Of a stretch of DNA of 64,000 nt, positions 3,960 through 45,715 are shown in pieces. Positions within the stretch are counted from its first letter, which is position 1; each line of letters begins with the position of its first letter. This stretch comes from Candidatus Uhrbacteria bacterium (GTDB lineage: Bacteria > Patescibacteriota > Patescibacteriia > UBA9934), in NCBI GenBank assembly GCA_018664485.1, contig JABJOE010000006.1, positions 71,294-135,293 on the forward strand, in the 5' to 3' direction. The notes below the pieces were generated by a model, which was given only the letters and a program-made list of their open reading frames with translations, was not told where the DNA came from and made no database searches. Position numbers and translations under genes: made by a program.

Positions 3960-4277
3960 ATTCTCATGCTGACAGTGGAATCGCGGTTACTCCCCAATTC
4001 TTGATCAGTAATATTTGTTCGAACTTTTTACACGATCACAACTGATAATGCAAATGATGCGAACAAAAAACGAGAAGGCGTTCAATGAACGACACTCCCG
4101 CCTTACACAAATATAGTGTTAGGCATGTTTTAATTTCTCAAATGGCGGGTCCCTTTCTAGTGCACCTTACGGCGCCCCTCCGTACGAAGCGGCGAGAAGG
4201 TTTTCCTCGGCAATGCCTTGGATCTTTCTTCTCGGTCCGAGTTGGGAGAGTGTGTAGTGAGTATAAATCTCTTTGTA

Positions 4278-4397
4278 GGACTCACAGATTTGAGTTCAAT
4301 TTCGGTGCACAGGATGTCAGCGCCGGAGCCGTACTCAAGGTACGGTGACTAAATGAAAGGCTCCTGTAAGCCGGAAGTGGACCAAAGCTGTGAGTCC
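4278..4397 (+). ncRNA. Structured RNA element (copy D of a multi-copy family) in the 440-nt rplC-rpsJ spacer, oriented antisense to the ribosomal operon
   Basis: 10-bp closing helix ggactcacag/ctgtgagtcc; inner helix GGAGCC/GGCTCC; apical hairpin CCGTAC-TCAAG-GTACGG; 3' tail GAAGTGGACCAAAG homologous to copies at 22389, 29861, 45462; promoter-like TTGGGA..TATAAA at ~4239-4268 on the + strand. Confidence 0.45.
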
Positions 4398-4402
4398 TAA
4401 CT

Positions 4403-4732
4403 TTACATTTTGATTTCAATGTCTACTCCTGCTGGTAGATTGAGTGACATCAATGAACTGATTGTGCTTTCACTAGGACTGAGAATATCAATCAATCGCT
4501 TGTGAATACGCATCTCATACTGATCACGAGACTTTTTGTGCACAAAGGTCGAACGGTTAACCGTGAAACGACGCTTTTCAGTTGGCAATGGAACAGGCCC
4601 TAGGGTCTGCGCTCCAGTGCGCTGTGCAGTCTTCATGATCGTCTCACAAGCCGTGTCGATCAACTTGTGATCATACGCACGGATCTTGATACGAATGCGC
4701 TGTTTTGTTTCTTTGTCTGTTTTTGCGGTCAT
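4403..4732 (-). CDS. rpsJ: 30S ribosomal protein S10
   Basis: ORF to 4771, but the S10-like N-terminus (MTAKTDKETKQRIRIKIRAYDHKLID) begins at the internal ATG; this leaves a ~60-nt gap to tuf. Confidence 0.88.
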   Translation of the reverse strand: MTAKTDKETKQRIRIKIRAYDHKLIDTACETIMKTAQRTGAQTLGPVPLPTEKRRFTVNRSTFVHKKSRDQYEMRIHKRLIDILSPSESTISSLMSLNLPAGVDIEIKM

Positions 4733-5972: not shown

Positions 5973-6198
5973 ATAAAATAGTTATTACCCTAGGGGGTGG
6001 GTTTTTAATGGTATCAGCGCCTAAATCAGCCCTGATACAAGCGCGGAGACTATAACAAAATCTAGCTTTTCTTGCAAGTCCCTGGCGTACATATCCTGTG
6101 GAAGAACCCTGCGTTTGGAAAAATGGCCAATATAAGCAGAATACACAACCTGTAATGTAGCCATTTTCAAATTGCCTAAAAACCGGCTTTTTAAGTCT

Positions 6199-10095: not shown

Positions 10096-10257
10096 ATTTA
10101 TATGGTTTAAGTGTGACTTCCCGCCGCGTTCTGGCGGTACTCACTATTTATAATTTACTCAGTTGGCACATTTGGACCAATTTCAGAGTATGGAAGCGTC
10201 CGCAGAGTGCAGGGCAATCCATTTGCTGAAAATGATCCAAATGTATTGATCTTAAAT

Positions 10258-11557: not shown

Positions 11558-14500
11558 CTACTTCGACTTGAGTGACAGATCGACTCTCTTTATCAGCTTG
11601 GACAAGTCAACGTCCATTAGTGTTGCGTCGTCTACCGCATCACCTACATCAAAGTGTGAGAAGAATGCCGGGTTCATGTCTACAACATAGTCAGCCCAGT
11701 CTGCACCGAAGAGATCAATTGCTACCTCTTCATCTGTAATCCAACGCAGCTGTGGTCGTAGTACTTCCCCTTCCTGCTCTGTGAGCATATATACATATGG
11801 AATGGACTGGATCTTTACCAATACAGAACCAGGCTTTGGAAGCATTAGTCCGTCTACTGACATTGAAACCATTTCCTCATATTCTATCTCTTCAATCTCG
11901 TCGAATGAATCTGCCCATGTGAAGTATGCAAGTGAGTTTACAAACGGTCGACGTGTTCCAATGTTTGTTACACAATATACAGTTGAGAACTCGTGGTACT
12001 TCACAAATCTATCTGTACAGTACACTCCGCTCTTTGCATTTTCCGCCTCCTCCTCTTCCACAACCTCTTCTTCCTCACCAAATAGATACTCGGCAGATGA
12101 CGCAGTACTTAATATATTGGCGATATCGTTGAGCTCTACTTTGAAAATAATTTCATCTCCTTCCTCTACTCCTTCTGGAGTCCAGTTGTAAGTACTGTTG
12201 TTAAACATGTACTGCTCAATGACTGTGTAGGTAGAGCCACTATTTAATGAGTAGGAAAGATCGACCAAATTCTCAGGACCAAGAGTAGTCCATGTGAGTT
12301 TAATCTTCTCATCAATACTAAGTGACGTTACTGTCTTTGAGGAGTCCACTGGCTGGTACACACGCAAGCTTCCAACTGACGGATCTACACTGTCATATAC
12401 AGTGGAAGATGAAGAAGCGCTTGCAGTTGTAAACGTTGCAGGGTGTGTAACTCCAGCTGCCGGACCAATGAGTGCATTTCCAGTGGTGTCGTTTGCAGTT
12501 GTTGTTGTAAACGTTATGTCAGAAGATCCGGAGAACTGACCTGAGTGTGAAATTGTAAGAGTTGTGTCTGACACACTCCAAGCGTTTGAGAGTCCTGACG
12601 GTGAGTCATCGAAGGAATATGCAGTGGAGCCAGTGTTAATTGCCTCGGAGAAAACAACGACTACGTCAGCCGAACGGCTAACATCTGTAGCCCCATCTGC
12701 CGGGGTAATGCTGACAATGACAGCACCAGCGGCGTCTGCAATTGCAACGGCGCTAATGTCGACGACAGCGTTAGCGTCTGTGTCATCCAATGAGTCGGCA
12801 GTTCCGTTTGCAGCAGTATATGCAAATGTAAGTGTTGGACCAGTTGTGTTTGCAACTGTGTTTGTAAGTGTTAATCGGAGATCTGTTGTAGACGCCACAC
12901 ATGCAGACACGGCAATAGATCCGGCGTCAGCACCACCAATGGTGTAGTCCCCGGCTTCGCATTCTCCAACCTCGATCGTTTCTGAGAAAACAATATCAAG
13001 GCGGTCAATATCACCGTCTGTATCTAAATCTTTGTATGACTGAGAAACATTCACTGGACTTGCCTCGTCAGACAGTGACGTTGCACCAATGGATGATATA
13101 GCGTTTGAAGTACCATCTAGAATAGATCCGGTAGACGCGGTAAAAGCGAGCGTCGGCTCCGTTCCACCTGACACACCCGTGAGGTTCGCGGCTGCAGACC
13201 CCGTAAGGACAATGGCAGTTGACCCGTTTCCAGATGAGTATCCACTCACGTCGAAGCTTGTAAGTGTGTTTGCAACTGCAGTCCAATCTCCATCGCTGTA
13301 TGTAACGGTGACAGGCTCTGTGAAGGTAAGTGTTACCTGGTCGATGGTTCCGTCAGCGTTTGCGTCACCGTACGCAGGAGCGTTTGCACCATCTGTTCGC
13401 ATGACTGCGGCGGCACCGTCGGTCAGTGACGCCGCTGACAAACTAGCAAGTACATTGGAGTTTGCATCCACGAGTGAGTTTGCGGTGTCATTTGATGCGT
13501 CGTAAGCAAAGGTTAGTGTGAGAAGTGTGTCCAAACTTGGAGCGGTGGTAAGCGTATATCGAACATCCGTTCCACTCACAACACAAGCGCTCACAGCCAT
13601 AGATCCAGCATCTGCGCCGGCAATTGCATAGTCCCCAACCTCACAGGTAGCAACTGTAATTACCTCGGTGAATGTGAGGTCAGCGCGGTCTACAGTTCCG
13701 TCACCGTTTGCGTCAACATATGTTTGAGATACAAGTTGTGGTAATGCTAAGTCAGTCAAAGTAACAGCTGGCACGGACGTCACAGCAGAGCTCGCAGCGT
13801 CCAAAAGTGACCCGGCAGTTTCATTGTTTGCATAGCTCCATGTAAAGGAAAGGCTCGTGTCGTTGGAAGGAGCATTGGCAACAGTAAAGGTAATTGTTGA
13901 TCCACCAACAGAGCACCCTGAGCTGTCTACAACGGCGATCGTACCTGCGTCAGTACCAGCAAACACAAAGTCTTCCGTTTCACACTCATCAAGCGTAATG
14001 CTCTCCGAGAATGAAACAGTAACTCGGTCTACTTTTCCATCGGTATCATTATCTAAGTAAGTTTGACCTGTTGAAACTGGAGCAGCCAGGTCTGTCAAAG
14101 CCGCAGCTGTAAGGTCAGCGACTGCGTTTCCGGCAGTGTCATCTAGCGAATTGGATGTTCCGTTTGCAGCAGTGTATGCCAAGGTCAATGTGAGGGCCGT
14201 ATCATTTGAGGGCGCTGAAGATACCGTAAGTTGCAGACTCGTAGTTGATGTTGCACAAGATGCAATTGAGATTGAACCCGCATCTGCCCCACCGACTGTA
14301 TAGTCACCAGCCTCACATTCGTCGTATGCGATATTTTCTGTAAATACGATGTCAAAACGATCTACCTGCCCGTCAGCATTCACATCTTTATATGCTTGCG
14401 ATACTTTGATCGGAGCAGCCTGATCAGTGACCGCCTTATCACTAAAGGAAGCCGCATCTTCGCTTCCACCATCTTGAAGTGAACCACTGGTACCCGATGA

Positions 14501-17500
14501 CGCCGTATAATTCCACTCAATATCAATATTAGTATCGCTCGACGGAGTATTTGAAAGTGTTAGTCGAAGATCTGACCCTGATGTTGCACAAGCGCTCACA
14601 GCGATAGTACCTGAATCATCTCCACCGAAAGTGTAGTCTCCGAATTCGCACTCATCGAGCGTTGGCATCTCAGAGAAAGTTACATCTAACCGATCAATGG
14701 TTCCATCTGAATTTATATCTTTGTAGCCAATAGCCAAGATCGCCATCGCAGCACCATCTGCAACACCTGATTCCGGTAGCGAAGGTACGGTTGTGGTTCC
14801 GTCAGAAATCGATCCTGTAGTTGCGGTAAATTCTATAGTTGGCTCTGTTCCGCCAGCAACTCCAGTTACACCAACATCTGCTGTGGCTGTAAGGATAATT
14901 GAAGCCGATCCGTTTCCAGAGTCATATGCAGACACATCAAAGCCTGATAGATCGTTAGCAGTTACAGCCCAGTCTCCATCGGCATATACAATCGTGACAT
15001 CTTCCGTAAACACAGCGGTCACCTGGTCAATAGTTCCGTCTCCATCATCATCTTGATATGTAAATGACATGAGTACTGGAATAGCCCCGTCAGTAAGTGC
15101 CACCGTCGTGATATCTGTAGCATCGTTTCCTGCAGCGTCATCCAGCGAGTTTGCGGTTCCGTTTGATGCGTCGTATGCAAAAGTTAATGCCAGATTTGTG
15201 TCGTTTGAAGGCGCTCCGGTAAGCGTTAGTCGCAGATCAGTTCCAGACACTGCACAAGCTGAGATTGCAACAGATCCGATGTCAGCGCCAGCTAGCGTGA
15301 AGTCAGCAGTCTCACATTCGTTTACCGTAATCGTTTCAGAGAAAACAACATCAAGTCTATCTATCGTTCCATTTGCACTCGCATCCTTATATGAGCGAGT
15401 CATATCGACAGGAATGGCTTCGTCAACCAATGTAGTTGCAGATATTCCACTCAGTGAAGCACCTCCCCCATCAACAATAGAACCACTTGAAGGTGTGAAT
15501 GCTAAAGTTGGCTCCGTTCCACCCGAGACACCGGTCAAACTAGCGTTTGCAGATGCTGTGAGTAGAATCTGTGTTGTACCGTTTCCAGAAAGATACGCTC
15601 CAGTATCAAAACCTGTGAGGTCATTTGCTGTAGCAGACCAATCTCCATCGCTGTACGTTAGAGTTGCAGCTTCAGTAAAGGTAAGTCGAACTCGATCAAT
15701 CGTACCGTCTTCATTATCGTCTAGATACGCCATCTTATTTGAACCGTCTGTTCGAAGTGCAGGGGCTGCAGCGTCATCAACAGTCTCGGCGCTAAATGCA
15801 GCGTCGGTATTGGAATTCGCGTCAGTAATAGATCCACCAGATGCCGTGAAGGCTAGAGTAGGTTCCGTTCCACCTGCTACACCGGTAGTATTCGATTGAG
15901 CTGTTGCCGTTAAGTAGATTGTTGCAGTACCATTTCCAGATGAGATAGCTGACACATCGAAACTTGTGAGGTCGTTTGCCGTTGCAGTCCAATCCCCATC
16001 TGTATATGCAATAGTTACAGCCTCTGAGAACTTCAACCGAACCCTGTCAACCGTTCCGTCTGTATTATTATCCTCGTATTGAATGTCATTTGAACCATCA
16101 GTTCTAAGGAATGGGTTTGCATTGTCAACTATCGACACGCTGCCATCCGGGTTTGACGTTGCATTAGTACCATCGGTCCACTCACTTGTAATTCCAGAAA
16201 CAGCAGCAGATCCAGCCCCCGTATTGATAGCCACCTGACCAACGACGCTGGACAAAGTCACCACAGCCGACGACCCCGCTGGGTCAGAAATTGTTGCGGA
16301 ACTCACAGTCTGCCCATCAGGTAAAAGAATAGTTCCAAAGTCAGCCAGAACAGGTGCAGCAGAATCGTTAGTATCCACATCCTCAGACCAGGTCATTACA
16401 ATTTGATCGATCAATCCGTTTCCTCCAGTATCATCTATCGCCAGGCTCGCAAGTACGGGTGCCGCAGCGTCAGCTAAAGTCAAAGCACTAATATCAGCCA
16501 CAGCATTTGCGGCAGAGTCATCAAGTGAGCCTGCTGTACCATTCGCTTCTGTATACGCAACTGTAAACGTCAGAAGAGTATCATTAGCCGGAGCGCTTGA
16601 AAGTGTAAGTTGAAGATCAGCTGAAGACGTCGCGCAAGATGCGACAGATATTGATCCAGCATCCGCTCCACCTATCGTAAAGTCCCCTCCCTCACATTCA
16701 TCAACTGCGATATTCTCAGAAAACGTAATATCAACACGATCTACCTGTCCGTCCAAATCTGTATCAAGATAGCTCTGCGTTCCGATTGAAACTGGAGCCG
16801 CCCCGTCAGCAAGGGCAGTTGCGGAAATATCTGCAACAGCATTTCCGGCGCTATCGTCAAGTGAACTCGCTGTACCGTTTGCCGCAGTGTAAGCAACCGT
16901 AAGCGTAAGATTTGTGTCATTGCTTGGCGCGTTTGAAATGGTGAGACGTAAGTCATCTCCACTTGCCACACATGAAGCAACCGCGATGCTACCCGCATCT
17001 GCACCACCTGCCGTGTAGTCACCTGCTTCACATTCATCAAGTCCAATGTTTTCACTGAAAGTAATATCAATCCGGTCGATGGTTCCATCTGAATTTGTGT
17101 CTTTATAGGCTCCAAATGTTGCTGCAGGAGCAGCTTCATCTGTCGCTGTCACGGAGTCAGACGTGAGCTCACCTCCTAGAGTTGTTTCAACTGACCCAAC
17201 AACCGAGACTAGTGGTAATGCGTCAGTATCTCCTGATCCCGACTCCGTTAGAATAATAGTCACTATACCCGCCGACGTCTCAGATGCAGAGGACACAGTA
17301 AACCCAGCGACTGTAAAATCAGAACCTGCTACGGTTGAAGCATTTAAATCTAAATCGAATGTAGCAATAATCTGATCAATTTGACCATTGCCATCATCAT
17401 CCTTTGTTACCGATGAAGTTAAATCCGGAGGAGTGGCCGAAGCACTGGTATACAGTGTACCTGCAGTACCATTCTGACCTGTTCCTGAACCAGAACCGGC

Positions 17501-19504
17501 TGCAGCAAGAACGGTATTTCCGTCTGAAATGAAAGTAGTAAGCGTGTCTCCAGATGTTGAAGAGTACGTAATTGAAACACGCCCACCTCCTCCACCACCA
17601 GAATCTTGTGTATCTCCACCGTTAGCGTCTCCACCGGTTGTAGTCAAGGTTCCACTAGAGCCCGCATACGGACCAGATGTAATATAAATTGAACCACCAG
17701 AACCTCCACCAGGAGATCTATTGGTGAGGGCATTGGTCGGGTCTCCACCGTTAGCACTAATCGTACCAGCGTGCGTCAATGTACCGGACACATCCAAACG
17801 AATAATTCCTCCACCAGGTCCTGCAACTGAATTTGATTCATTTGTATGTCCTCCAGTAGAACCATACAAAACCGGCGCAGTATTAGAACCATAGGTTCCA
17901 CCACCAGCACCACCAGAACCTCCATTACCGGTACCACCAGCACCACCATGTCCTCCTCCACCAGCATTTGAGTTACCCCCACCAGCACCCGTTTCGCTCC
18001 TTGTACACGCGTTTGAACCATCAGGCCCCTTACCGTCTACTGCTGATCCAGGAAAGTTTTCCGTACAGCCATATTCATCTGCATTTATAGAAGTACTTGA
18101 ACCAACCGAAAGAGCTACCAGATTAGTCCAGCTAACATTAGACCTAATACTAGTTGTTCCGGTTAGATCAATTGTTGCGGCATCATCTATAACAAACGTT
18201 CCACGAACACCTCCAGTAATTGTAACGTCATCCCATGTAGTGGTAACGCCTGCTGGAACAGTAAAATCAATATCGACACCTGTATTATTAACATTGATAG
18301 TTGATCCGCTGGCAATATCAAAATCATTTCCACCAGTAAATACAACGTCAGTTAAAGAAGCGTCAGTACACGTAAGTGTTCCTCCAAAATAAAACTCATC
18401 GGTAGCCGTTAGAGTTACATCTGCAGTTCCAGACTCACATGCAATAACAGATGTATCAAATCTCAATCCACCTGAGCTGGTTACGTTCGTAGCGTCGACA
18501 TAAAGTTGATAATAGTAAACAACGTCACTAGTTGCGGAGCCTAAAGTGTAAGCTGAACCATCAGTTCCATCAGCTGCGGACCCCGGCCCAGAACCACCCG
18601 AAACAAGAAAATCATTGGCAGCCATACCTCCCCCTCCGTTGAAAGAGTCTGTCGTGTATAACAATGAAATAATCCCTCCACCTCCACCTCCACCGTCAGC
18701 GGAGCTGTTATCACCTCCAGCACCACCGATCGCGGAGAACGTACCGGTAGAACCAGCGAGAGTACCCGTCGAGATAAATATAGACCCACCCGATCCACCA
18801 CCTCCAGCACGGTTCGTACTATTTGTACCACCAACAGCACCGTCTGATTCGATAATTCCATTATTAGTAAGCGTGGTCGTTACATCGATTCGAACAACAC
18901 CTCCTCCAGCACCACCTACTCCAGCGTTTCCAGACCCACCAGACGTACCGAATAGTAGCGGACCAGTCACTGTATCGTAATGAGATCCTGCAGCCTTAGT
19001 CGTTCCCGCACCACCGTTCCCACCATGACCTGACCCACCCGCACCCGTCGTACTAGTTGAGGCACCGATTCCAGCACCTGCAGTTGCAAGCGTACAGACA
19101 TTAGAACCGCTAGGCCCATAACCTGTATTGTTATTTGTAGATGTACAACCCTGACCATCTCCAGAAATAGAAGAACCGCTATCAATTTGAAGGTTGTCAG
19201 TTTTGAGGTATGGGTACCATCCATTAACTTGGTCTCCATCAAATGTAAGAGTAGAGGTTGAAGTTACAAGAATATCTACACCAGTACAGTCCCAATAATC
19301 CCCGAGTGCAGCATATCCAGTTGTATTCCAACTAGTGCTAGAGCTAATCGTAATAGTACCATCAGCGGTTGCGTCATCGTCACCGGCCCCACCGTCTGTT
19401 GCGGGACATGAAACTGCCGCAGCAGACACACTTTGAAAACCAAAAAAGATTCCCAACAAAGAGAAAATGACGATAAACAAACTCAGTCGTAAATAACGCG
19501 TCAT
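11558..19504 (-). CDS. Giant secreted cell-surface protein (2648 aa): signal peptide, Gly-rich beta-helix-like N-terminal third, then >=15 tandem ~95-100-aa Ig-like repeats, Big-like domain and acidic C-terminal domain
   Basis: N-terminus MTRYLRLSLFIVIFSLLGIFFGFQSVSAAA; GGxGGxG-rich tracts; recurring DGTIDR(V/L)D(I/V)TFSE..ECE(A/G)GDYT.GGADAGSIAV.SC..DLRLTLS.APSNDT.LTLT.AY.A.NGTA.SLDD unit, alternating with a Cys-free variant; ITPADGATDV Big-type segment near the C-terminus. Confidence 0.85.
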   Translation of the reverse strand: MTRYLRLSLFIVIFSLLGIFFGFQSVSAAAVSCPATDGGAGDDDATADGTITISSSTSWNTTGYAALGDYWDCTGVDILVTSTSTLTFDGDQVNGWYPYLKTDNLQIDSGSSISGDGQGCTSTNNNTGYGPSGSNVCTLATAGAGIGASTSTTGAGGSGHGGNGGAGTTKAAGSHYDTVTGPLLFGTSGGSGNAGVGGAGGGVVRIDVTTTLTNNGIIESDGAVGGTNSTNRAGGGGSGGSIFISTGTLAGSTGTFSAIGGAGGDNSSADGGGGGGGIISLLYTTDSFNGGGGMAANDFLVSGGSGPGSAADGTDGSAYTLGSATSDVVYYYQLYVDATNVTSSGGLRFDTSVIACESGTADVTLTATDEFYFGGTLTCTDASLTDVVFTGGNDFDIASGSTINVNNTGVDIDFTVPAGVTTTWDDVTITGGVRGTFVIDDAATIDLTGTTSIRSNVSWTNLVALSVGSSTSINADEYGCTENFPGSAVDGKGPDGSNACTRSETGAGGGNSNAGGGGHGGAGGTGNGGSGGAGGGTYGSNTAPVLYGSTGGHTNESNSVAGPGGGIIRLDVSGTLTHAGTISANGGDPTNALTNRSPGGGSGGSIYITSGPYAGSSGTLTTTGGDANGGDTQDSGGGGGGRVSITYSSTSGDTLTTFISDGNTVLAAAGSGSGTGQNGTAGTLYTSASATPPDLTSSVTKDDDGNGQIDQIIATFDLDLNASTVAGSDFTVAGFTVSSASETSAGIVTIILTESGSGDTDALPLVSVVGSVETTLGGELTSDSVTATDEAAPAATFGAYKDTNSDGTIDRIDITFSENIGLDECEAGDYTAGGADAGSIAVASCVASGDDLRLTISNAPSNDTNLTLTVAYTAANGTASSLDDSAGNAVADISATALADGAAPVSIGTQSYLDTDLDGQVDRVDITFSENIAVDECEGGDFTIGGADAGSISVASCATSSADLQLTLSSAPANDTLLTFTVAYTEANGTAGSLDDSAANAVADISALTLADAAAPVLASLAIDDTGGNGLIDQIVMTWSEDVDTNDSAAPVLADFGTILLPDGQTVSSATISDPAGSSAVVTLSSVVGQVAINTGAGSAAVSGITSEWTDGTNATSNPDGSVSIVDNANPFLRTDGSNDIQYEDNNTDGTVDRVRLKFSEAVTIAYTDGDWTATANDLTSFDVSAISSGNGTATIYLTATAQSNTTGVAGGTEPTLAFTASGGSITDANSNTDAAFSAETVDDAAAPALRTDGSNKMAYLDDNEDGTIDRVRLTFTEAATLTYSDGDWSATANDLTGFDTGAYLSGNGTTQILLTASANASLTGVSGGTEPTLAFTPSSGSIVDGGGASLSGISATTLVDEAIPVDMTRSYKDASANGTIDRLDVVFSETITVNECETADFTLAGADIGSVAISACAVSGTDLRLTLTGAPSNDTNLALTFAYDASNGTANSLDDAAGNDATDITTVALTDGAIPVLMSFTYQDDDGDGTIDQVTAVFTEDVTIVYADGDWAVTANDLSGFDVSAYDSGNGSASIILTATADVGVTGVAGGTEPTIEFTATTGSISDGTTTVPSLPESGVADGAAMAILAIGYKDINSDGTIDRLDVTFSEMPTLDECEFGDYTFGGDDSGTIAVSACATSGSDLRLTLSNTPSSDTNIDIEWNYTASSGTSGSLQDGGSEDAASFSDKAVTDQAAPIKVSQAYKDVNADGQVDRFDIVFTENIAYDECEAGDYTVGGADAGSISIASCATSTTSLQLTVSSAPSNDTALTLTLAYTAANGTSNSLDDTAGNAVADLTAAALTDLAAPVSTGQTYLDNDTDGKVDRVTVSFSESITLDECETEDFVFAGTDAGTIAVVDSSGCSVGGSTITFTVANAPSNDTSLSFTWSYANNETAGSLLDAASSAVTSVPAVTLTDLALPQLVSQTYVDANGDGTVDRADLTFTEVITVATCEVGDYAIAGADAGSMAVSACVVSGTDVRYTLTTAPSLDTLLTLTFAYDASNDTANSLVDANSNVLASLSAASLTDGAAAVMRTDGANAPAYGDANADGTIDQVTLTFTEPVTVTYSDGDWTAVANTLTSFDVSGYSSGNGSTAIVLTGSAAANLTGVSGGTEPTLAFTASTGSILDGTSNAISSIGATSLSDEASPVNVSQSYKDLDTDGDIDRLDIVFSETIEVGECEAGDYTIGGADAGSIAVSACVASTTDLRLTLTNTVANTTGPTLTFAYTAANGTADSLDDTDANAVVDISAVAIADAAGAVIVSITPADGATDVSRSADVVVVFSEAINTGSTAYSFDDSPSGLSNAWSVSDTTLTISHSGQFSGSSDITFTTTTANDTTGNALIGPAAGVTHPATFTTASASSSSTVYDSVDPSVGSLRVYQPVDSSKTVTSLSIDEKIKLTWTTLGPENLVDLSYSLNSGSTYTVIEQYMFNNSTYNWTPEGVEEGDEIIFKVELNDIANILSTASSAEYLFGEEEEVVEEEEAENAKSGVYCTDRFVKYHEFSTVYCVTNIGTRRPFVNSLAYFTWADSFDEIEEIEYEEMVSMSVDGLMLPKPGSVLVKIQSIPYVYMLTEQEGEVLRPQLRWITDEEVAIDLFGADWADYVVDMNPAFFSHFDVGDAVDDATLMDVDLSKLIKRVDLSLKSK

Positions 19505-21520: not shown

Positions 21521-21750
21521 ATCAGTACATACGTATTTGGACTATTTTCAGCTTATGGGGCCCCGCCACTCACTCAATGACCGAGTGGGGTTGTTTCGAG
21601 AGATGGCTCCCTGTGCACGCGACACAAGCCTCAAATACCTAAGTCCTTTACTAAGTCATGACAAGGATACCGCGAGGTGGCGGTAGTGGCAACCAATTGA
21701 CAACCCTTATATAAAGAGACATTGTATATAAACACTACAACTCGAGGCTG

Positions 21751-22146: not shown

Positions 22147-22388
22147 TCCCCAGCGATCACTCGTCGCCGCCCACGAGCCGCTCGCTTGTAGGGCGGTTCA
22201 TTGCATCCAAATTACTAAATATCAAGAACCAATTAACAAGTATCCAAACAAATCAATATAAAAAACTCTGAGGTGTATGAGATGTCGTTGAGACAAGAAT
22301 AAAGAAGATAAATAAAATTCACACAGGTGGATGAGATATCGATGAAGCAAAAAAGCGCAGCAAAAAAACATTCATATTTGTGGTCAAT

Positions 22389-22477
22389 TCTAGGCGCGGG
22401 GAAAGTGATGAGGAGACGTACTCATAGTACGTTGACGAATCACTGTGGCCCCGCAACAACGAAGTGGCCCAAATAGG
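22389..22477 (+). ncRNA. Structured RNA element (copy B of the multi-copy family) within an 800-bp ORF-poor intergenic region
   Basis: TAGGCGCGGGGAAAGTGATGAGGAGACGTACTCATAGTACGTTGACGAATCACTGTGGCCCCGCAACAACGAAGTGGCCCAAATAGG; nested helices GCGGGG/CCCCGC, AGTGAT/ATCACT, ACGTAC/GTACGT. Confidence 0.45.
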
Positions 22478-22962
22478 AATGTTTTTTCGACTCTTTGGTG
22501 CTTCAAGTAAACCGCTCGTAATATAGGTCTCCCTCTATATATGGGCAATACGTCCGAAATCGACGACCGATTGAGCAAGGGAACCTCTGCAAGCTGACAT
22601 GCAGTTTGCAAAAGGCCCTGGCCCAAGGCGACGTCACCCGACCGCGTGATAACCGCCGGATCCCCGCTGATCCCGCCCCCCTTACAACAATCGACTTCAT
22701 TCATCTTCTATAGGTAGACGAATTTAGTTTCGTACTACGTTTAGAATAAAAGGTAATTATTGGAAAAGGGGCGGGACAGCAAGACTACGTATTCTCGCAG
22801 ATAATTCAGTGTTAGCTGAACTCACGGATCCTTTCAATGTAAATTAGTCCAATTACGACACCATTTACCTGAAGCACTTATAGTATCCCACCCAAACTAA
22901 ACCTATGCAAGAAAAAACGGCAGATCTTATCCACCGTTTTTCCACTAACCGCACACAAGTTC

Positions 22963-26906: not shown

Positions 26907-29843
26907 CTAAACTACGAAGTTCATCATCCTCCCCTTCACGTAGATAACCTTCTTTACCTCCCCCTCAACGAACTTTGCAACATTTTCGTTTGCTCTTGCA
27001 GCAGCCTCAACCTCTTGCTGCGGAGCGTCGGGTGCAACCTCGAGCGTTGCTCTTAATTTTCCATTTACCTGGACCGCGAGCGTAATAACATCATCAACCA
27101 CTTGTGACTCGTCATACGCAGGCCACTTTTGTTGCTCAACAAACCCTGTAGCTCCAAGGTTCTCCGCAACTTCGTTTGCGATATGAGGGGCGAATGGGCA
27201 CAGAGTATACATGAACATCAGCAAAGACTCTTTTGTAAGTGCCTTGTGTTTGTTTACGACATTAATGAACGTCATCATCTGGGCGACAGCTGTATTGAAT
27301 CGTAAATTCTCAATATCTTCTCCCACTTTCTTTACAGTTTTATGTAACGCCTTGGTCACTTCTTTATCTTCCGAGATTGATACCATGTCTGGAAGCCTTG
27401 CGACCTTATCCAAGAAACGTCGAGTACCGATCATACCCTTAGTATTCCATGGAGCCGGCTCTTCAAAAGGTCCAACGAACATTTCGTACATGCGCAGAGT
27501 GTCCGCACCGTACTTGTCGACTACCTCATCTGGATCAATTCCGTTACCCTTAGACTTGGACATCTTCGTACCATCTTCAGCAAGGATCAAGCCATGGCTA
27601 TGTCTACGAGCATAAGGTTCGCTCACCGGGACATGACCTCGGTCGAACATCACCTTGTTCCAAAAACGAGAATATAGAAGATGCAGAACCGTGTGCTCCA
27701 TTCCACCATTATATAAATCAATTGGCATCCAGTACTCAAGCTTCTTCATGTCTGCAAAAGCTTCGTCGTTATGTGGATCAATATATCGGAGGAAGTACCA
27801 AGATGACCCTGCCCAGTTTGGCATAGTATCAGTCTCACGTTTTGCAGGACCATTACATGTCGGACACTCCGTATTCACCCAGTCGGTAATCGCAGAGAGT
27901 GGAGACTCACCGTCGTCTGTTGGCTGGTACTGATCTACCTCTGGAAGCTCAACCGGGAGCTGATCCTCGGGAACCGGAATCCATCCACCAGTTTCGGGAG
28001 AACAAGAATCACAATGGATCAAAGGAATCGGTTCACCCCAATAACGTTGGCGGGAGAACACCCAATCTCGAAGTTTATAGTTTACTGTCTTTTTTCCATG
28101 ACCGTTCTTTTCAAGCCAGGCGATCATCTCTTCTTTTGCTTCGTCTACTTTTTTCCCATCCAAGAAGTCGGAGTTGACTGACAACCCTTCTCCAGCATAC
28201 GCCTCCGCGTCAACGGATCCGCCGGACACAACCTCAACGATCGGTAAATCAAACGCCTTTGCAAACGCCCAATCTCGCTCGTCATGCGCCGGCACTGCCA
28301 TAATTGCTCCCGTTCCATATCCCATCATCACATAGTCTGCTACCCAAACAGGAATCTGTGCACCATTAGCTGGATTTACAGCGTAAGCACCAGTAAATGC
28401 ACCTGTCTTTTCTTTTGTGCCATCTCCTCGATCAATGTCTGACTTTTTTGAAGCGGCCTTCACGTAGGCCTCAACTTCAGCGCGTTTGTCATCCGTAACA
28501 ATCGTACTTACTAACGGATGTTCAGGCGCCAACACCATGTACGTCGCACCAAACAATGTATCCGGCCGCGTTGTGAAGACTTCAATTGATGGAATCAGTT
28601 GCGACAAGATAACTGGCTCTTCCTTACCGTTAAAATGACCTACCTCAGCCTCTGCTACTACCAACTCTCCTCGAAGATTGTTTGCAATCTGTACCGGATG
28701 ATCTTGAGGAACTGCCGGATCATTTTTATCTGCCAAGACAGTAAACCGTTTTGCCATTTTACTTATCGCACCAAAATCAAACTTCCAGTCACAGCAATCT
28801 CGAAGTGCTGGGCGTTCTTTTCCGTCCAATAGCTCCACATTCACAGGAGGTGCCACCATAATCACATGGCTAACCGGCGTATCCAAAGTTGGAAGTAGCT
28901 TCATAGCTGCGACACCGCCGAGCGAATGCGTGATAACAATAGTCTTCTCATTAAACGTATAGCTTTCTTTGATAAACTTGATTTGTTCTTCAATGTTTGG
29001 CTCCGATGGATTTGGCAAGTCTAAAACAGTAACACTCGCTCCGCGCCCTTCAAGCTCAGCTGACAACCATGGCCAAAACGCTTCCTTAGAATCATCCCGA
29101 AAGGCATGCAATCCAAGGATATTGTAACCACTTAAATCTGTATCAACCGTAAAATCAACTTCAGCTCCTTCGCTCCGTCCAATCCAATCCTGCTGCTGCT
29201 TTTTAATCTTTGGAAGATAGTCCACTGTGTCTAAATCATCGAGTAACCGTTGAGCGTACTTTGTAATCGCAATCATCCATTGCTCTTTGTCGCGCTTTTC
29301 AACCTCTCCTCCGCAGCGCTCACAAGCACCACCTACAACCTCTTCATTTGAAAGACCGATCTTGCATGACACACACCAGTTGATAGCCATCTTATCTTTG
29401 TACGCAAGTCCTTCTTTGAAGAACTCCAAAAACTGCCACTGAGTCCACTTGTAATAAGACGGGTCGGTTGTGTTTACCTCTCGTGACCAATCAAAACTAA
29501 TTCCAAGCGACTGAAGCTGCCGGCGGAAGGTGTCGATATTTTCCTTTGTCACCTCCTGAGGCTTTCGACCAGTCTTAATTGCATAGTTCTCCGTTGGAAG
29601 CCCAAAAGCATCCCAGCCAATCGGGTACAGAACATTAAATCCCTCCATTCGTTTTTTGCGAGCAAGAATATCGAGCGCCGTGTAGCTTCGGGGGTGACCC
29701 ATGTGCAGGCCTGACCCTGACGGATACGGAAACTCAATCAAACAATAAAATTTCTCTTTGTCAGAAAAATCTTCGGCATGAAAAACGCCCTCATCCTCCC
29801 AGCGTTTTTGCCACTTCTTATCAATCGATGAATGGTTATACAT
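26907..29843 (-). CDS. leuS: Leucyl-tRNA synthetase with an inserted RBBP9/YdeN-like alpha/beta serine-hydrolase domain before the CP1 editing domain
   Basis: 978 aa; HMGH and KMSKS class I motifs, TTRPDT and AVPAHD editing-domain motifs, C-terminus ..KKVIYVKGRMMNFVV; ~180 extra aa (aa ~236-418) containing FWPWL, LPNP, ITHSLGG, KNDPAVP, VGHF. Confidence 0.93.
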   Translation of the reverse strand: MYNHSSIDKKWQKRWEDEGVFHAEDFSDKEKFYCLIEFPYPSGSGLHMGHPRSYTALDILARKKRMEGFNVLYPIGWDAFGLPTENYAIKTGRKPQEVTKENIDTFRRQLQSLGISFDWSREVNTTDPSYYKWTQWQFLEFFKEGLAYKDKMAINWCVSCKIGLSNEEVVGGACERCGGEVEKRDKEQWMIAITKYAQRLLDDLDTVDYLPKIKKQQQDWIGRSEGAEVDFTVDTDLSGYNILGLHAFRDDSKEAFWPWLSAELEGRGASVTVLDLPNPSEPNIEEQIKFIKESYTFNEKTIVITHSLGGVAAMKLLPTLDTPVSHVIMVAPPVNVELLDGKERPALRDCCDWKFDFGAISKMAKRFTVLADKNDPAVPQDHPVQIANNLRGELVVAEAEVGHFNGKEEPVILSQLIPSIEVFTTRPDTLFGATYMVLAPEHPLVSTIVTDDKRAEVEAYVKAASKKSDIDRGDGTKEKTGAFTGAYAVNPANGAQIPVWVADYVMMGYGTGAIMAVPAHDERDWAFAKAFDLPIVEVVSGGSVDAEAYAGEGLSVNSDFLDGKKVDEAKEEMIAWLEKNGHGKKTVNYKLRDWVFSRQRYWGEPIPLIHCDSCSPETGGWIPVPEDQLPVELPEVDQYQPTDDGESPLSAITDWVNTECPTCNGPAKRETDTMPNWAGSSWYFLRYIDPHNDEAFADMKKLEYWMPIDLYNGGMEHTVLHLLYSRFWNKVMFDRGHVPVSEPYARRHSHGLILAEDGTKMSKSKGNGIDPDEVVDKYGADTLRMYEMFVGPFEEPAPWNTKGMIGTRRFLDKVARLPDMVSISEDKEVTKALHKTVKKVGEDIENLRFNTAVAQMMTFINVVNKHKALTKESLLMFMYTLCPFAPHIANEVAENLGATGFVEQQKWPAYDESQVVDDVITLAVQVNGKLRATLEVAPDAPQQEVEAAARANENVAKFVEGEVKKVIYVKGRMMNFVV

Positions 29844-29860
29844 AGTCGTATTTTATATTT

Positions 29861-29950
29861 GGTCCATTTCGTTGTTGCGTGGGCCCTGTGTCTCGTCATC
29901 GTACGGAAAAGTACGATTTCTCGTCACTTTCCCCGCGCCTATAACTGAAC
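29861..29950 (-). ncRNA. Structured 5'-leader RNA element (copy A of the multi-copy family) immediately upstream of leuS
   Basis: In gene orientation: TATAGGCGCGGGGAAAGTGACGAGAAATCGTACTTTTCCGTACGATGACGAGACACAGGGCCCACGCAACAACGAAATGGACCAAATA, then ~18 nt to the leuS ATG; homologous to copies B, C, D. Confidence 0.5.
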
Positions 29951-30044
29951 TCAAATACCAAAACACGATACAAGTTCGCAGTCAGAGTACGGCGAAATAG
30001 CAAAAAGGGCAAGATTATTGGTATAAATCCGACCCTTCTTATCT

Positions 30045-40523: not shown

Positions 40524-41783
40524 CTATTCTTCCATCCAAGCATCTACGCTTGCGACAATGTCGCTCAGCTTCACTAAATTCATATCCGTACTCGTTCTCT
40601 CTTTCCACTCAACCGAATCGTCAACAAGAGTCTTTTGTGAAATTACGAGACGCAGTGGTAACCCAATCAAATCCGCATCTCCAAACTTCGCTCCAGGAGA
40701 AACGCCAGGCCGATCATCCCACAGAACTTCTACTCCAACATCTTTCAAACCTTGGTATAGATCTTCAGATGCGTTATCAATTCTATTCTGAACTTCTTCA
40801 TCCTTAGATGATAGAGAAAGCAGATGAACTGCGAACGGAGCCACAGACTTTGGCCAAATCATTCCGCGTTCGTCGTTGTGAACTTCTACAATAGACCCCA
40901 TCACGCGCGACGGACCAATTCCATAACAACCCATGATAATATCTACCATCTTTCCATCAGCTCCTGGAACCTTCATTTTGAAAGCCTCCGAGAAACGACA
41001 TTCAAGCGGGAAAATATTTCCAACCTCGATGGATTTTTTAATCTCGTACTTCTCTTCGTTCTTCCAATCTTCCTCTGGAATAATTTCGCGGTTCATCACC
41101 TCACCAGATGCGCGATCAATATAAATATGATCTTCACCTGCATCCGTTGCAACCTGGAATTCATGCGAATGCTTTTCTGTAAACACACCACCTGATGCTG
41201 CAGTAACTACGGCGTCTAATCCACAACGCGTATACACGTTAAGATAAGCAACCTTTGCCTTCTCATAAAAATCTAGAAAGTCTGCTTCGTCAGCATGGAA
41301 GCTGTAAAGATCTTTCATTGAGAACTCTCGTCCACGCAGCAGTCCAGATTTTGCACGAGGTTCATTACGGAACTTATCTTGAATCTGATACACGGCAACT
41401 GGCAAATCTTTATAAGAATTTACGAACTCCTTCACAAGAGGCGTTACAACCTCTTCAGCTGTAGAGCTCAAACTATATTTTTTTCCACCGGCTCCATCTA
41501 ACTTAAACATGACATCGATCTTATCCCAGCGATCTGTTGAGTCATAAAGATGCTTTGGGTGAAGTGCCGGCATCAAAACCTCCTGAGCACCAAGAGCGTC
41601 CATCTCTTCTCTAACGATATTCTTAATCTTATCAAGTACCCGAAGACCAAGTGGGAGATATGTGTAGATCCCCGCAGCTAGCTGACTTATAAAACCAGCC
41701 TGTGTTAGCAAACGCGCGTTTGGCGAGTCTGCGTCGGCAGGTGCGTCCTTACGTGTTTTTGTAAATAGATGTGATTGCTTCAT
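40524..41783 (-). CDS. proS: Prolyl-tRNA synthetase, short bacterial-type lacking the editing insertion
   Basis: 419 aa; N-terminus aligns to bacterial ProRS (LRAG.I...A.G.YT.LP.G.RVL.K.ENIVREEM), class II motifs (REF.MKD.YSFH). Confidence 0.9.
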   Translation of the reverse strand: MKQSHLFTKTRKDAPADADSPNARLLTQAGFISQLAAGIYTYLPLGLRVLDKIKNIVREEMDALGAQEVLMPALHPKHLYDSTDRWDKIDVMFKLDGAGGKKYSLSSTAEEVVTPLVKEFVNSYKDLPVAVYQIQDKFRNEPRAKSGLLRGREFSMKDLYSFHADEADFLDFYEKAKVAYLNVYTRCGLDAVVTAASGGVFTEKHSHEFQVATDAGEDHIYIDRASGEVMNREIIPEEDWKNEEKYEIKKSIEVGNIFPLECRFSEAFKMKVPGADGKMVDIIMGCYGIGPSRVMGSIVEVHNDERGMIWPKSVAPFAVHLLSLSSKDEEVQNRIDNASEDLYQGLKDVGVEVLWDDRPGVSPGAKFGDADLIGLPLRLVISQKTLVDDSVEWKERTSTDMNLVKLSDIVASVDAWMEE

Positions 41784-41942
41784 ATGAAGAACTTACGTAT
41801 TTGGACCATTTTAGACTTATGGAGCCTCTATTGAAGCTCATCGTACAATATTAGTACGCCTGGTACAAACGCCTCCATGTATTGAAACCGATCTCAAATA
41901 TGAAAGTTCTTTCGAGCGAATGCTCGCTTTTTGACATTTGCT

Positions 41943-45386: not shown

Positions 45387-45430
45387 TTGACCTAAACGTG
45401 CATATAATCTATACTCTTCTCGCAAAGTGA
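45387..45430 (+). promoter_or_regulatory. Promoter TTGACC-17-TATACT with overlapping palindrome TTGTCAATAATTGAC, upstream of the tRNA-Arg leader
   Basis: ttgtcaataattgacctaaacgtgcatataatctatact. Confidence 0.45.
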
Positions 45431-45461
45431 AATCAGGATATTTCTAGGTTTGATGTATACA

Positions 45462-45550
45462 AGGCGTGGGTGGCTGACAAGGAGTCGTACTAGAAGTACG
45501 GTGACGAAGTCCGACGGGCCCCACAACACAGTAGACGGCAAACCTAGGAG
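45462..45550 (+). ncRNA. Structured leader RNA element (copy C of the multi-copy family) upstream of tRNA-Arg
   Basis: AGGCGTGGGTGGCTGACAAGGAGTCGTACTAGAAGTACGGTGACGAAGTCCGACGGGCCCCACAACACAGTAGACGG; helix GTGGG/CCCAC shows compensatory change relative to copy B (GCGGGG/CCCCGC). Confidence 0.45.
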
Positions 45551-45638
45551 TGTCCTGCGGCGTTAGCTTCCACCTTCGCTGAAGCTACGGTCGACAAGCA
45601 GCTGGTAATACACCCAGCTTCGCAAACCACAAAATTAT

Positions 45639-45715
45639 GCGGCGTTAGCTCAGCTGGATAGAGCGTCTGGCTTCGGACCAGAAGGTCGGGGGTTCGAACC
45701 CCTCACGCCGCACCA
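45639..45715 (+). tRNA. tRNA-Arg (anticodon TCG), CCA encoded
   Basis: Cloverleaf: acceptor GCGGCGT/ACGCCGC, D-stem GCTC/GAGC, anticodon stem TCTGG/CCAGA with loop CTTCGGA, T-arm GGGGG-TTCGAAC-CCCTC, discriminator A, CCA. Confidence 0.9.

Follow-up and report, generated by a model that had tools for sequence, protein, structure and literature searches.

Dispersed intergenic hairpin repeats that meet gene boundaries with one end in Patescibacteria and other bacterial phyla

Introduction

REP/BIME sequences and REPINs, mobilised by RAYT tyrosine transposases, are high-copy extragenic palindromes that are located mostly at gene 3' ends and fold into long hairpins. A REP comprises 20–40 nucleotides (nt) with a GTAG or CGTC tetranucleotide tag at its foot (PMC3733652). 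Both kinds also show compensating changes in their arms, strand-specific recognition of their structure and a partner enzyme that is not found beside most copies. Here we describe a hairpin repeat that resembles them in these respects, as far as recognition of its structure may be proposed, and that recurs in a 64,000-nt stretch of DNA from a Candidatus Uhrbacteria bacterium (contig JABJOE010000006.1, positions 71,294 to 135,293; hereafter the window).

Likenesses to other systems are also evident. [quoted passage not shown] Integron attC sites share an imperfect hairpin right after the stop of an open reading frame (ORF), a folding strand antisense to that ORF and a definition by structure more than by sequence. 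In fungal mitochondria, double-hairpin elements and GC clusters are small mobile hairpins that gather at gene termini in compact genomes and are possible processing signals.

The initial annotation of the window had described the repeat as an RNA element of ~90–110 nt and suggested that it is a shared cis-regulatory leader of aminoacyl-tRNA synthetase and tRNA genes. Our analysis demonstrated a family of dispersed repeats in several bacterial phyla with a conserved and strand-asymmetric structure, gain and loss between related genomes and a polar position at the boundaries of functionally unrelated genes.

Results and Discussion

Copies of the repeat in the window

The whole window was searched with the pattern CGTAC-N4-8-GTACG-N-TGAC, with dinucleotide-preserving shuffles as control. 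Exactly four matches were found, at 4330(+), 22417(+), 29895–29915(-) and 45486(+), in comparison to 0.00 in the shuffles. These correspond to the four copies already recognised in the initial annotation (D, B, A and C, respectively), whose orientation defines the (+) strand of each element throughout. All four were also found at 61–102 bits by covariance model R1, which was built from 107 homologues and scored on the window, and R1 further recovered the weaker instance suspected upstream of proS. Copies A and B are 82–83% identical over ~100 nt, and the alignment of copies A–D contains 36 invariant columns.

Copy B (22361–22490, + strand; core 22417–22436) is the best-scoring full element in the window (R1 102 bits, E=5.5e-25; minimum free energy (MFE) -43.3 kcal/mol, z=-3.4), its hairpin includes the outer stem AAAAAACATTCA/GGAATGTTTTTT, and it is situated in an 817-nt stretch without a called gene. 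This gene-free stretch (22147–22962), in a compact genome of ~1 Mb, also holds an unrelated long hairpin at 22662–22788(-) (MFE -58 kcal/mol, z=-6.5) and a G+C-rich segment at 22560–22690, and no Rfam match was obtained in 22147–22962. Copy A (29841–29971, - strand; core 29895–29915; R1 74 bits; MFE -33.5 kcal/mol, z=-3.6) stands before leuS as originally reported; the gap of ~18 nt to the ATG (29843) given for it is reduced to 2–3 nt when the outer stem is counted in its (+)3' base. Copy D (4273–4403, + strand; R1 61.5 bits; MFE -63.7 kcal/mol, z=-7.35) lies antisense to the S10 operon and folds into a near-perfect 124-nt hairpin (4276–4399). Its 3' base is 2 nt (4400–4401) from the rpsJ TAA at 4402–4404 by the sequence ruler, or 3 nt from the annotated stop at 4403–4405. 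The diverged fifth copy (41783–41914, - strand; R1 27.3 bits, E=4.2e-5; fold z=-3.7) has the core CGTAC-TAATATT-GTACG-ATGAGC and an outer stem GAAGAACTT/AAGTTCTTC that stops 3 nt before the proS ATG at 41783. Both rpsJ (S10) and proS were assigned by Pfam.

Copy C (45431–45560, + strand; R1 68 bits; outer stem CAGGATATTTCTAGGTTTG/CAAACCTAGGAGTGTCCTG) occupies the leader of tRNA-Arg (45639–45715), in agreement with the initial annotation, and its 3' base adjoins a 12-nt copy of the tRNA 5' end. A sigma-70-like promoter can be read from the sequence at 45387–45415(+), with TTGACC at 45387–45392, a 17-nt spacer and TATACT at 45410–45415; it is joint best of two among 89 upstream flanks and reads into copy C and tRNA-Arg. 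Because this good putative promoter stands before copy C, the copy is very likely contained in the tRNA-Arg precursor. As a separate observation, the first 12 nt of tRNA-Arg (GCGGCGTTAGCT, 45639–45650) are repeated 82 nt upstream at 45557–45568, exactly at the 3' base of copy C, and the 70 nt between the two 12-mers contain the small palindromes AGCTTC/GAAGCT and CAGCTGG/CCAGCT, which looks like an insertion into, or a partial duplication of, the tRNA-Arg 5' end.

Folding showed that the upstream motif TATTTGAG (TTTGAGTTCA) pairs with the 3' tail TGGNCCAAATA as the two strands of an outer helix. When 75-nt flanks were included, an extra copy-specific stem of 12–15 bp formed outside that helix in all four copies, copy C included. 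Each window copy is thus the top of a long imperfect hairpin of ~130–150 nt, and the original length estimate was too short. The enclosing helices GCGGGG/CCCCGC, GTGGG/CCCAC and AGTGAT/ATCACT were upheld by family-wide covariation; the GGAGCC/GGCTCC helix put forward for copy D represents an alternative pairing in this diverged copy. A T-box had been dismissed from the outset and covariance-model searches concur: the window holds no T-box match that reaches the gathering threshold, the surroundings of copy A none with E<=10 and those of copy B none with E<=1.

Three more long hairpins of the window share an ATTTG/CAAAT base, lack the apex and are undetected by R1. The first, in the rpsL–rpsG spacer (10167–10245, - strand; MFE -36.5 kcal/mol, z=-7.1), has a CATTTGG/CCAAATG base and no canonical apex. 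The second, upstream of an EPSP-synthase-family gene (21533–21638, - strand; z=-2.4), has the base TATTTGAGG/GTCCAAATA, likewise without canonical apex, and is a weak member. The third is a degenerate element-like segment in the rpsJ–rplC spacer (4011–4114, - strand; TATATTTGTGTAAGGCGGGAG...CGAACAAATA; z=-4.1, not a single rod), which faces rplC, is positioned 5'-to-5' with copy D and may belong to the family.

Distribution and covariation of the family

A scan of 185,579 species genomes with the 20-base core pattern GGAGNCGTACN{4,7}GTACGNTGACKA identified at least 116 loci among the matches listed, compared with an estimated ~9 matches expected by chance. At least 18 further base pairs enclose the core as a rod in 112 of the 116 genome matches. 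An independent scan of JGI metagenome contigs listed at least 119 new elements, from which 7 duplicates were taken out. Across both scans, an identical type of apex with tandem G.A pairs, one G.U pair and a stem of 7 bp occurred at more than 230 loci. Carriers within the Patescibacteria included Paceibacteria/Parcubacteria, Zambryski-, Nomura-, Kaiser- and Uhrbacteria, Minisyncoccia and metagenome-assembled genomes (MAGs) labelled Saccharibacteria. Further carriers were Myxococcota with many copies per genome (Byssovorax, Polyangiaceae and others), Omnitrophota, Bacillota (Massilibacillus, Syntrophomonadaceae, Peptococcaceae, Clostridia) and a few Proteobacteria, including the cultured Paraherbaspirillum soli KACC 12633 (locus L046).

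The conserved fold with compensatory changes that the initial annotation had proposed from four copies was strongly supported in the family. In a MAFFT alignment of 107 elements the RNAalifold consensus structure had 19 pairs, 13 of which showed double-sided changes. Paired cells amounted to 87.8%, in comparison to 66.2% in shuffles and 29–46% with partners slid, and the covariation score was 0.525 in comparison to 0.154 in shuffles; the observed values were reached by 0/500 shuffles. One pair, G65–C91, was fixed by the search pattern. The apical stem covaries too in copies found by the model but outside the pattern (CCUUAG/CUAAGG, ACGUAG/CUACGU). Copies in the genome JBAZUI01 share at least 95% identity over their inner ~95 nt and vary in the apical loop and in one helix; among Byssovorax copies it is another helix that varies.

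No family match was obtained with the Rfam 15 covariance models, which returned only chance matches to microRNA-precursor-like hairpins (E>=0.05, far below gathering scores), and literature searches by topic and by sequence string retrieved no description of the element. This family of hairpin repeats from several bacterial phyla is apparently undescribed.

Architecture and strand asymmetry

The conserved (+)-strand rod starts at its base with a variable outer stem and helix P1. Above these, (U/C)AGG(C) faces AAC(R)(M) in an internal loop, and helices P2/P3 lead on to a purine loop, where GAGGA and GACGA lie across from each other and form tandem G.A pairs. The tip is made up of a G.U pair, a 7-bp apical stem and a free loop. 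In some variants the outer G.A pairs are replaced by U-A and C-G and only the inner GA/GA is kept, leaving as the minimal conserved core a Watson-Crick helix followed by tandem G.A pairs, a G.U (or A-U) pair and a stem.

Of 120 elements, 116 gave a more stable fold for the (+) strand, as oriented in the initial annotation, than for the reverse complement, and the mean difference was 13 kcal/mol. This asymmetry is located in the purine loops and three neighbouring pairs, where G.U outnumbers A.C by 78 to 10; outside those three pairs G.U (34) and A.C (39) are balanced. The conserved motifs are thus read as RNA or single-stranded DNA motifs of the (+) strand, and the generic stems are strand-neutral.

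One end of the element against gene boundaries

The position of 126 elements located by nhmmer in genome loci was compared with long ORFs and ARAGORN tRNAs, using a cut-off of 12 nt for boundary contact and, as denominators, the elements with a feature on the side in question. In low-G+C genomes the (+)3' end was within 12 nt of a gene boundary in 57/83 cases and the (+)5' end in 7/79. The 57 boundaries comprised 42 opposite-strand ORF stops, four opposite-strand tRNA 3' ends, six same-strand tRNA 5' ends and five same-strand starts. High-G+C genomes showed 14/25 for the (+)3' end and 5/26 for the (+)5' end, giving 71/108 versus 12/105 for the genome set overall. The metagenome set repeated this rule with 38/53 and 21/46 for the (+)3' end (59/99) and 2/45 and 6/44 for the (+)5' end (8/89). 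Taking both sets, ~63% of elements had the (+)3' end, and ~10% the (+)5' end, within the cut-off.

The offset to the stop codon peaks inside a 7-nt window. In the usual layout among ~245 elements, the element is antisense to the neighbouring gene and lies directly past its stop codon; in ~10–20% a same-strand gene or tRNA follows. In tRNA clusters (L043, L079, L007) the elements bracket tRNAs with their (+)3' ends pointing at them across gaps of 0–5 nt. The window copies follow the same polarity, with copy D at the rpsJ stop, copy A and the proS copy before ATGs and copy C at the copied tRNA 5' end; copy B is without an annotated neighbour. Ribosomal protein S7 keeps its native C-terminus (...AHFAW*) with or without an element after the gene, indicating that the element begins right after an intact gene and ruling out, for S7, that it supplies the stop codon or C-terminus.

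A spacer of at least 60 nt is usual on the (+)5' side of the element, and there is none on the 3' side, an arrangement expected of a promoter followed by an RNA. Together with the better folding of the (+) strand and good upstream promoters at copy C and a few other copies, this would suit a family of independent small-RNA genes, in which each copy forms its own (+) transcription unit with a promoter in the variable 5' spacer, the rod is the mature RNA and the product acts as a protein sponge or a convergent antisense RNA. We nevertheless regard this explanation as unlikely, as sigma-70-like promoters were no commoner upstream of the elements than in shuffles (28% versus 27%), some copies lack the space for a promoter, and the 5' spacers hold partial element copies or tandem repeats, not conserved motifs. 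The arms themselves showed no positional enrichment of Bacteroidota-type (TAnnTTTG) or sigma-70 promoter sequences.

GC skew in the window is negative and uniform, yet copies occur on both strands. Element orientation in the window is therefore not tied to replication, and an orientation set by a single-stranded lagging-strand template was rejected on the same ground. This bears on a further alternative, namely that the repeat acts at the DNA level as a cruciform or single-stranded hairpin for binding or recombination, comparable to gyrase or IHF sites at REP/BIME, the folded strand of attC or HUH substrates, with the RNA being incidental. A long inverted repeat with tandem G.A pairs, which are stable in DNA too, would be suited to such a role, the strand that folds runs antisense to the gene at whose stop codon it lies, like the attC bottom strand, and the balance of G.U and A.C outside three positions agrees with it. 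An orientation independent of replication direction speaks against it, as do flanks made up of housekeeping genes, not cassettes, and the confinement of conservation to the apical part with no R''/R'-like boxes at the base. There is also no integrase or HUH gene nearby, and the apical stem covaries, which excludes a sequence-specific palindromic operator. A DNA-level site is accordingly an improbable explanation.

Neighbouring genes do not form a regulon

The 60 ORFs abutting (+)3' ends span 88 Pfam families, including SecY, S7, FtsZ, RpoC, GyrB, AlaRS, ATP synthase gamma and M23 peptidases. No protein family recurred in the 8-kb flanks, and no functional enrichment was detected among the neighbours. 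The element, whose (+)3' end adjoins the boundaries of unrelated genes, mostly opposite-strand stop codons, is therefore no regulator of leuS or of tRNA genes.

The leader hypothesis, by which a riboswitch-like or stringent-type cis-regulatory RNA is shared by leuS, proS and tRNA genes, is understandable from the window, where three of the five copies are directly upstream of, and in sense with, leuS, proS and tRNA-Arg and a promoter precedes copy C. It is largely refuted by the family as a whole and we consider it very unlikely. The small share of elements that precede a same-strand gene, the unrelated and mostly antisense neighbours, the lack of any element upstream of leuS in relatives and the lack of a downstream sense gene at copies B and D all contradict it. 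The initial annotation had itself opposed its leader model to a dispersed DNA repeat without orientation bias to genes; dispersal was indeed what we observed, but an orientation rule exists, which differs from the one that a leader would follow.

Gain, loss and retention

Uhrbacteria-like relatives at 64–72% LeuS identity share the order leuS-comEC-MBL-ndk...rpsL-rpsG-fusA with the window, and no element was found in 45 kb around leuS in these syntenic relatives. The spacer upstream of leuS measures 84 nt in L122 and the rpsL–rpsG spacer 20 nt in L119.

Insertion polymorphism at orthologous sites, as known from MITEs, was observed in two filled-versus-empty pairs. In the first (L048 versus L115, 78% identity), the filled site has the element directly after the TAA of a conserved gene, followed on the (+)5' side by ~55 extra nt and then by the conserved promoter of an HU gene (TTGCGT-17-TATACT); the corresponding empty stretch measures 20 nt and contains no hairpin. 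In the second (L040 versus L072), ~390 nt stand in place of 13 nt. This insert consists of the element and, on its (+)5' side, five tandem 46-nt repeats GCTCTTTCGCTCGACCTTCGGTCTTGCGAAAATCGCCCTCCACTTG (2135–2385) that resemble the 5' arm of the element and are lacking in L072. Partial 5'-arm copies were seen in L040 and L048 and were rejected as a general feature of 5' spacers, as nhmmer generally finds none.

Several routes of insertion were considered and discarded. That the element enters the loop of a terminator hairpin already in place is ruled out by the empty L115 site, which has no hairpin, and by the fixed distance between core and boundary. A TA target within the stop codon, with the stop remade by the first purine of the element, suits the Byssovorax family and L048; it fails for L102, L084 and copy D, where the native stop is 0–3 nt before the hairpin, and cannot account for the polarity. 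In one Omnitrophota MAG, identical inverted copies with 5' ends inward (L034, 3960–4091(-) and 6465–6596(+)) bracket a 717-aa ORF, and a third near-identical copy is located on another contig (L073), all three having the non-palindromic 5' extension ATACC. The arrangement was set aside as a possible composite transposon, the bracketed ORF being without a Pfam domain.

Mobility, recognition and alternative explanations

As related genomes differ by gains and losses of the repeat, a non-autonomous mobile element is its most likely identity. The fuller reading that we favour, to which we give about an even chance of being correct, is that the copies form a large, dispersed family of intergenic hairpins of the REPIN/ERIC/Correia kind, which come and go, are co-transcribed with their surroundings and carry a strand-specific apex recognised by a protein. 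The (+) fold would serve as the recognition site for either a mobilising enzyme or an RNA-processing factor. As the (+)3' end is flush with a gene boundary and the variable spacer is on the (+)5' side, elements would be transcribed passively with their neighbours. Where a same-strand gene follows, as with leuS, proS and tRNA-Arg here, the (+) hairpin would be placed at the extreme 5' end of the leader. In the commoner case of an opposite-strand gene, as with rpsJ here, the reverse-complement hairpin would come right after the stop codon, where the role of the element would be limited to that of a generic 3' hairpin or processing site. An exact junction at the (+)3' end and an irregular (+)5' side, where additional sequence and partial copies are found, suggest a polar, copy-based insertion process. 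That mobility is the cause, that a protein recognises the fold and that RNA stability or processing is affected at all are our inferences.

A number of results weigh against this interpretation. Neither a transposase, a RAYT or a reverse transcriptase near any copy, nor a split "autonomous" version or split half-sites, was found in ~1.5 Mb of flanks. The element is also absent from 2.9 million IMG/VR viral contigs and from PLSDB plasmids, so phage or plasmid spread was rejected and no vehicle for cross-phylum spread is visible. Target-site duplications are inconsistent, with a possible TTAA or TA in L048, none in L040 and no consistent one in within-genome families, and we know of no transposition mechanism that would account for the polarity. 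Inverted repeats can stay complementary through DNA-level template switching, hence covariation alone does not prove an RNA role, and the balance of G.U and A.C outside the three asymmetric pairs belongs here as well. Copies after rpsG are orthologous across species (L028/L084), with one compensatory C-G to U-A change, as are those of L054/L114. Such orthologous retention, together with loop conservation across phyla, is at least as compatible with a host function as with selfish spread.

These points are taken up by a host-functional alternative, in which the hairpin is an RNA-level "punctuation" signal, read by a widely conserved RNA-binding or RNA-cleaving protein, that defines transcript ends at gene boundaries. 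Its (+) form would set the 5' ends of tRNAs and near-leaderless mRNAs and its reverse complement the protected 3' ends after stops; in a variant, it would work as a one-way insulator and keep antisense transcription out of the gene. Flush junctions with stops, tRNA 5' ends and starts in a 7-nt window, the same rule across four or more phyla, conserved purine loops, tandem G.A pairs that covary with Watson-Crick pairs, orthologous copies kept with compensatory change and elements filling tRNA–tRNA spacers can all be interpreted in this way, and leaderless or processed 5' ends are plausible in a genome without Shine-Dalgarno sequences. Most copies are however antisense to the one gene with which they are in contact, some take up an entire operon spacer and leave no space for a (+) promoter (L017), promoter-like sequences are not enriched upstream, close relatives lack the element at the same sites, and no U-tract or other terminator feature is common to the subfamilies. 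On this evidence we rate the punctuation hypothesis as the main rival, though a rather doubtful one.

A broader proposal, which we put forward tentatively as possible, is that the repeats constitute an undescribed, structure-defined class in Patescibacteria, Myxococcota, Omnitrophota and Bacillota whose G.A-loop rod is the handle for a conserved enzyme, be it as a polar mobile element or as an RNA "punctuation" signal. If mobile, such elements could use, for example, a target-primed or single-strand mechanism starting at the (+)3' end, which would account for the exact 3' junction at stops and tRNA 5' ends and for the irregular 5' side and its partial copies. In the other version, they would be a general signal setting transcript ends at gene boundaries in genomes without Shine-Dalgarno sequences.

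If the family has been read correctly, ~1% of some 1-Mb Patescibacteria genomes, as extrapolated from 5 copies in 64 kb, would consist of an uncatalogued conserved structured repeat. The polarity rule implies either a new integration mechanism that senses gene boundaries or a widespread RNA-processing or insulating signal. Both options are directly testable since at least one cultured organism, Paraherbaspirillum soli KACC 12633, carries a copy. Model R1 also allows annotators to spot these hairpins, avoiding false leader or riboswitch calls or spurious ORFs across them.

Other features of the window

A near-perfect 58-nt hairpin (CAATTTGAAAATGGCTA...TAGCCATTTTTCCAAAC) lies at 6114–6171, between tuf and the next ORF, and possibly represents a terminator or a further palindromic repeat of small size. 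Two pairs of direct repeats (45797–45846/45972–46021 and 63569–63612/63951–63994) are 44–50 nt long, 84–86% identical and 175 and 382 nt apart. Just downstream of tRNA-Arg, the former of these pairs (GGGCTTRCCGAGTGGYCAAAC...) resembles a tRNA D-arm and was not called by ARAGORN or Rfam.

LeuS (26907–29843, - strand) has 978 aa and contains an inserted alpha/beta-hydrolase domain (Ser_hydrolase, PF06821), which is common to several Patescibacteria homologues, others being fused to NUDIX or other domains. The ORF at 11558–19504(-) encodes 2648 aa of many diverged internal repeats with periods of ~336–690 nt, with Big_5 and faint CopC matches; it is probably a giant surface protein and is lacking in the syntenic region of the relative L119. 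Almost none of the start codons in the window have a Shine-Dalgarno sequence and they typically follow an A/T-rich ...TAT or ...TTAT; this suggests that translation starts either on leaderless mRNAs or independently of Shine-Dalgarno pairing.

Comparison with known systems

Several known RNA structures were compared with the element and rejected as its identity. The UGACGA of its 3' strand resembles box C (UGAUGA) and, as in kink-turn and box C/D RNAs, tandem sheared G.A pairs stand next to a helix, with GGA...GA(C) flanking the apical stem. The 3-nt asymmetric bulge of a kink-turn is lacking, and the G.A loop is not a kink-turn because it is either symmetric (5x5, GAGGA/GACGA) or, in variants, absent with Watson-Crick helices on both sides. 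The likeness of GAGCCGUAC...GUACGGU to group II intron domain V is superficial, as the 7-bp stem has no bulge and no Intron_gpII match was obtained. An intrinsic terminator was rejected, since the A-run and T-run are present in some subfamilies only, the window and Myxococcota subfamilies being without them.

TIGR-Tas stem-loop guide units are Patescibacteria hairpins that occur in arrays with free spacers beside a Tas gene (PMC12045711). The element is similar to them as a rod-like RNA of Patescibacteria with conserved motifs in internal loops. It is not a solitary TIGR unit, however, as its copies are dispersed and solitary and form no Tas-adjacent arrays. The segments between its motifs are base-paired to each other and so provide no free guides.

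Among the systems named at the outset, attC sites have conserved RYYYAAC/GTTRRRY boxes at the stem base, whereas the element has a variable base and a conserved apex, and its neighbours are core housekeeping and tRNA genes with no cassette arrays and no intI gene. The hairpin elements of fungal mitochondria belong to another domain of life, differ in size and sequence and share no common motif with it.

As with REP and REPIN sequences, the element is a multi-copy extragenic hairpin with compensating arm changes; no GTAG or CGTC tag is conserved in its termini or consensus. A REPIN is built of two terminal REPs, in contrast to the conserved apex and internal loops found here. REPIN–RAYT pairs are lineage-specific, whereas the element spans several phyla and no RAYT gene was seen in its 8-kb flanks or in the window. 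As far as we know, no report on REPINs describes a strict polarity with one end towards the gene.

Being an inverted repeat over its full length, the element has the terminal inverted repeats of a MITE. Unlike ERIC, Correia and MITE sequences, it showed no consistent TA or other target duplication at the sites compared, no related insertion sequence in ~1.5 Mb of flanks and no outward promoter signal in its arms, and it is further distinguished from them by the same core across phyla, by strand-specific purine loops and by its polarity.

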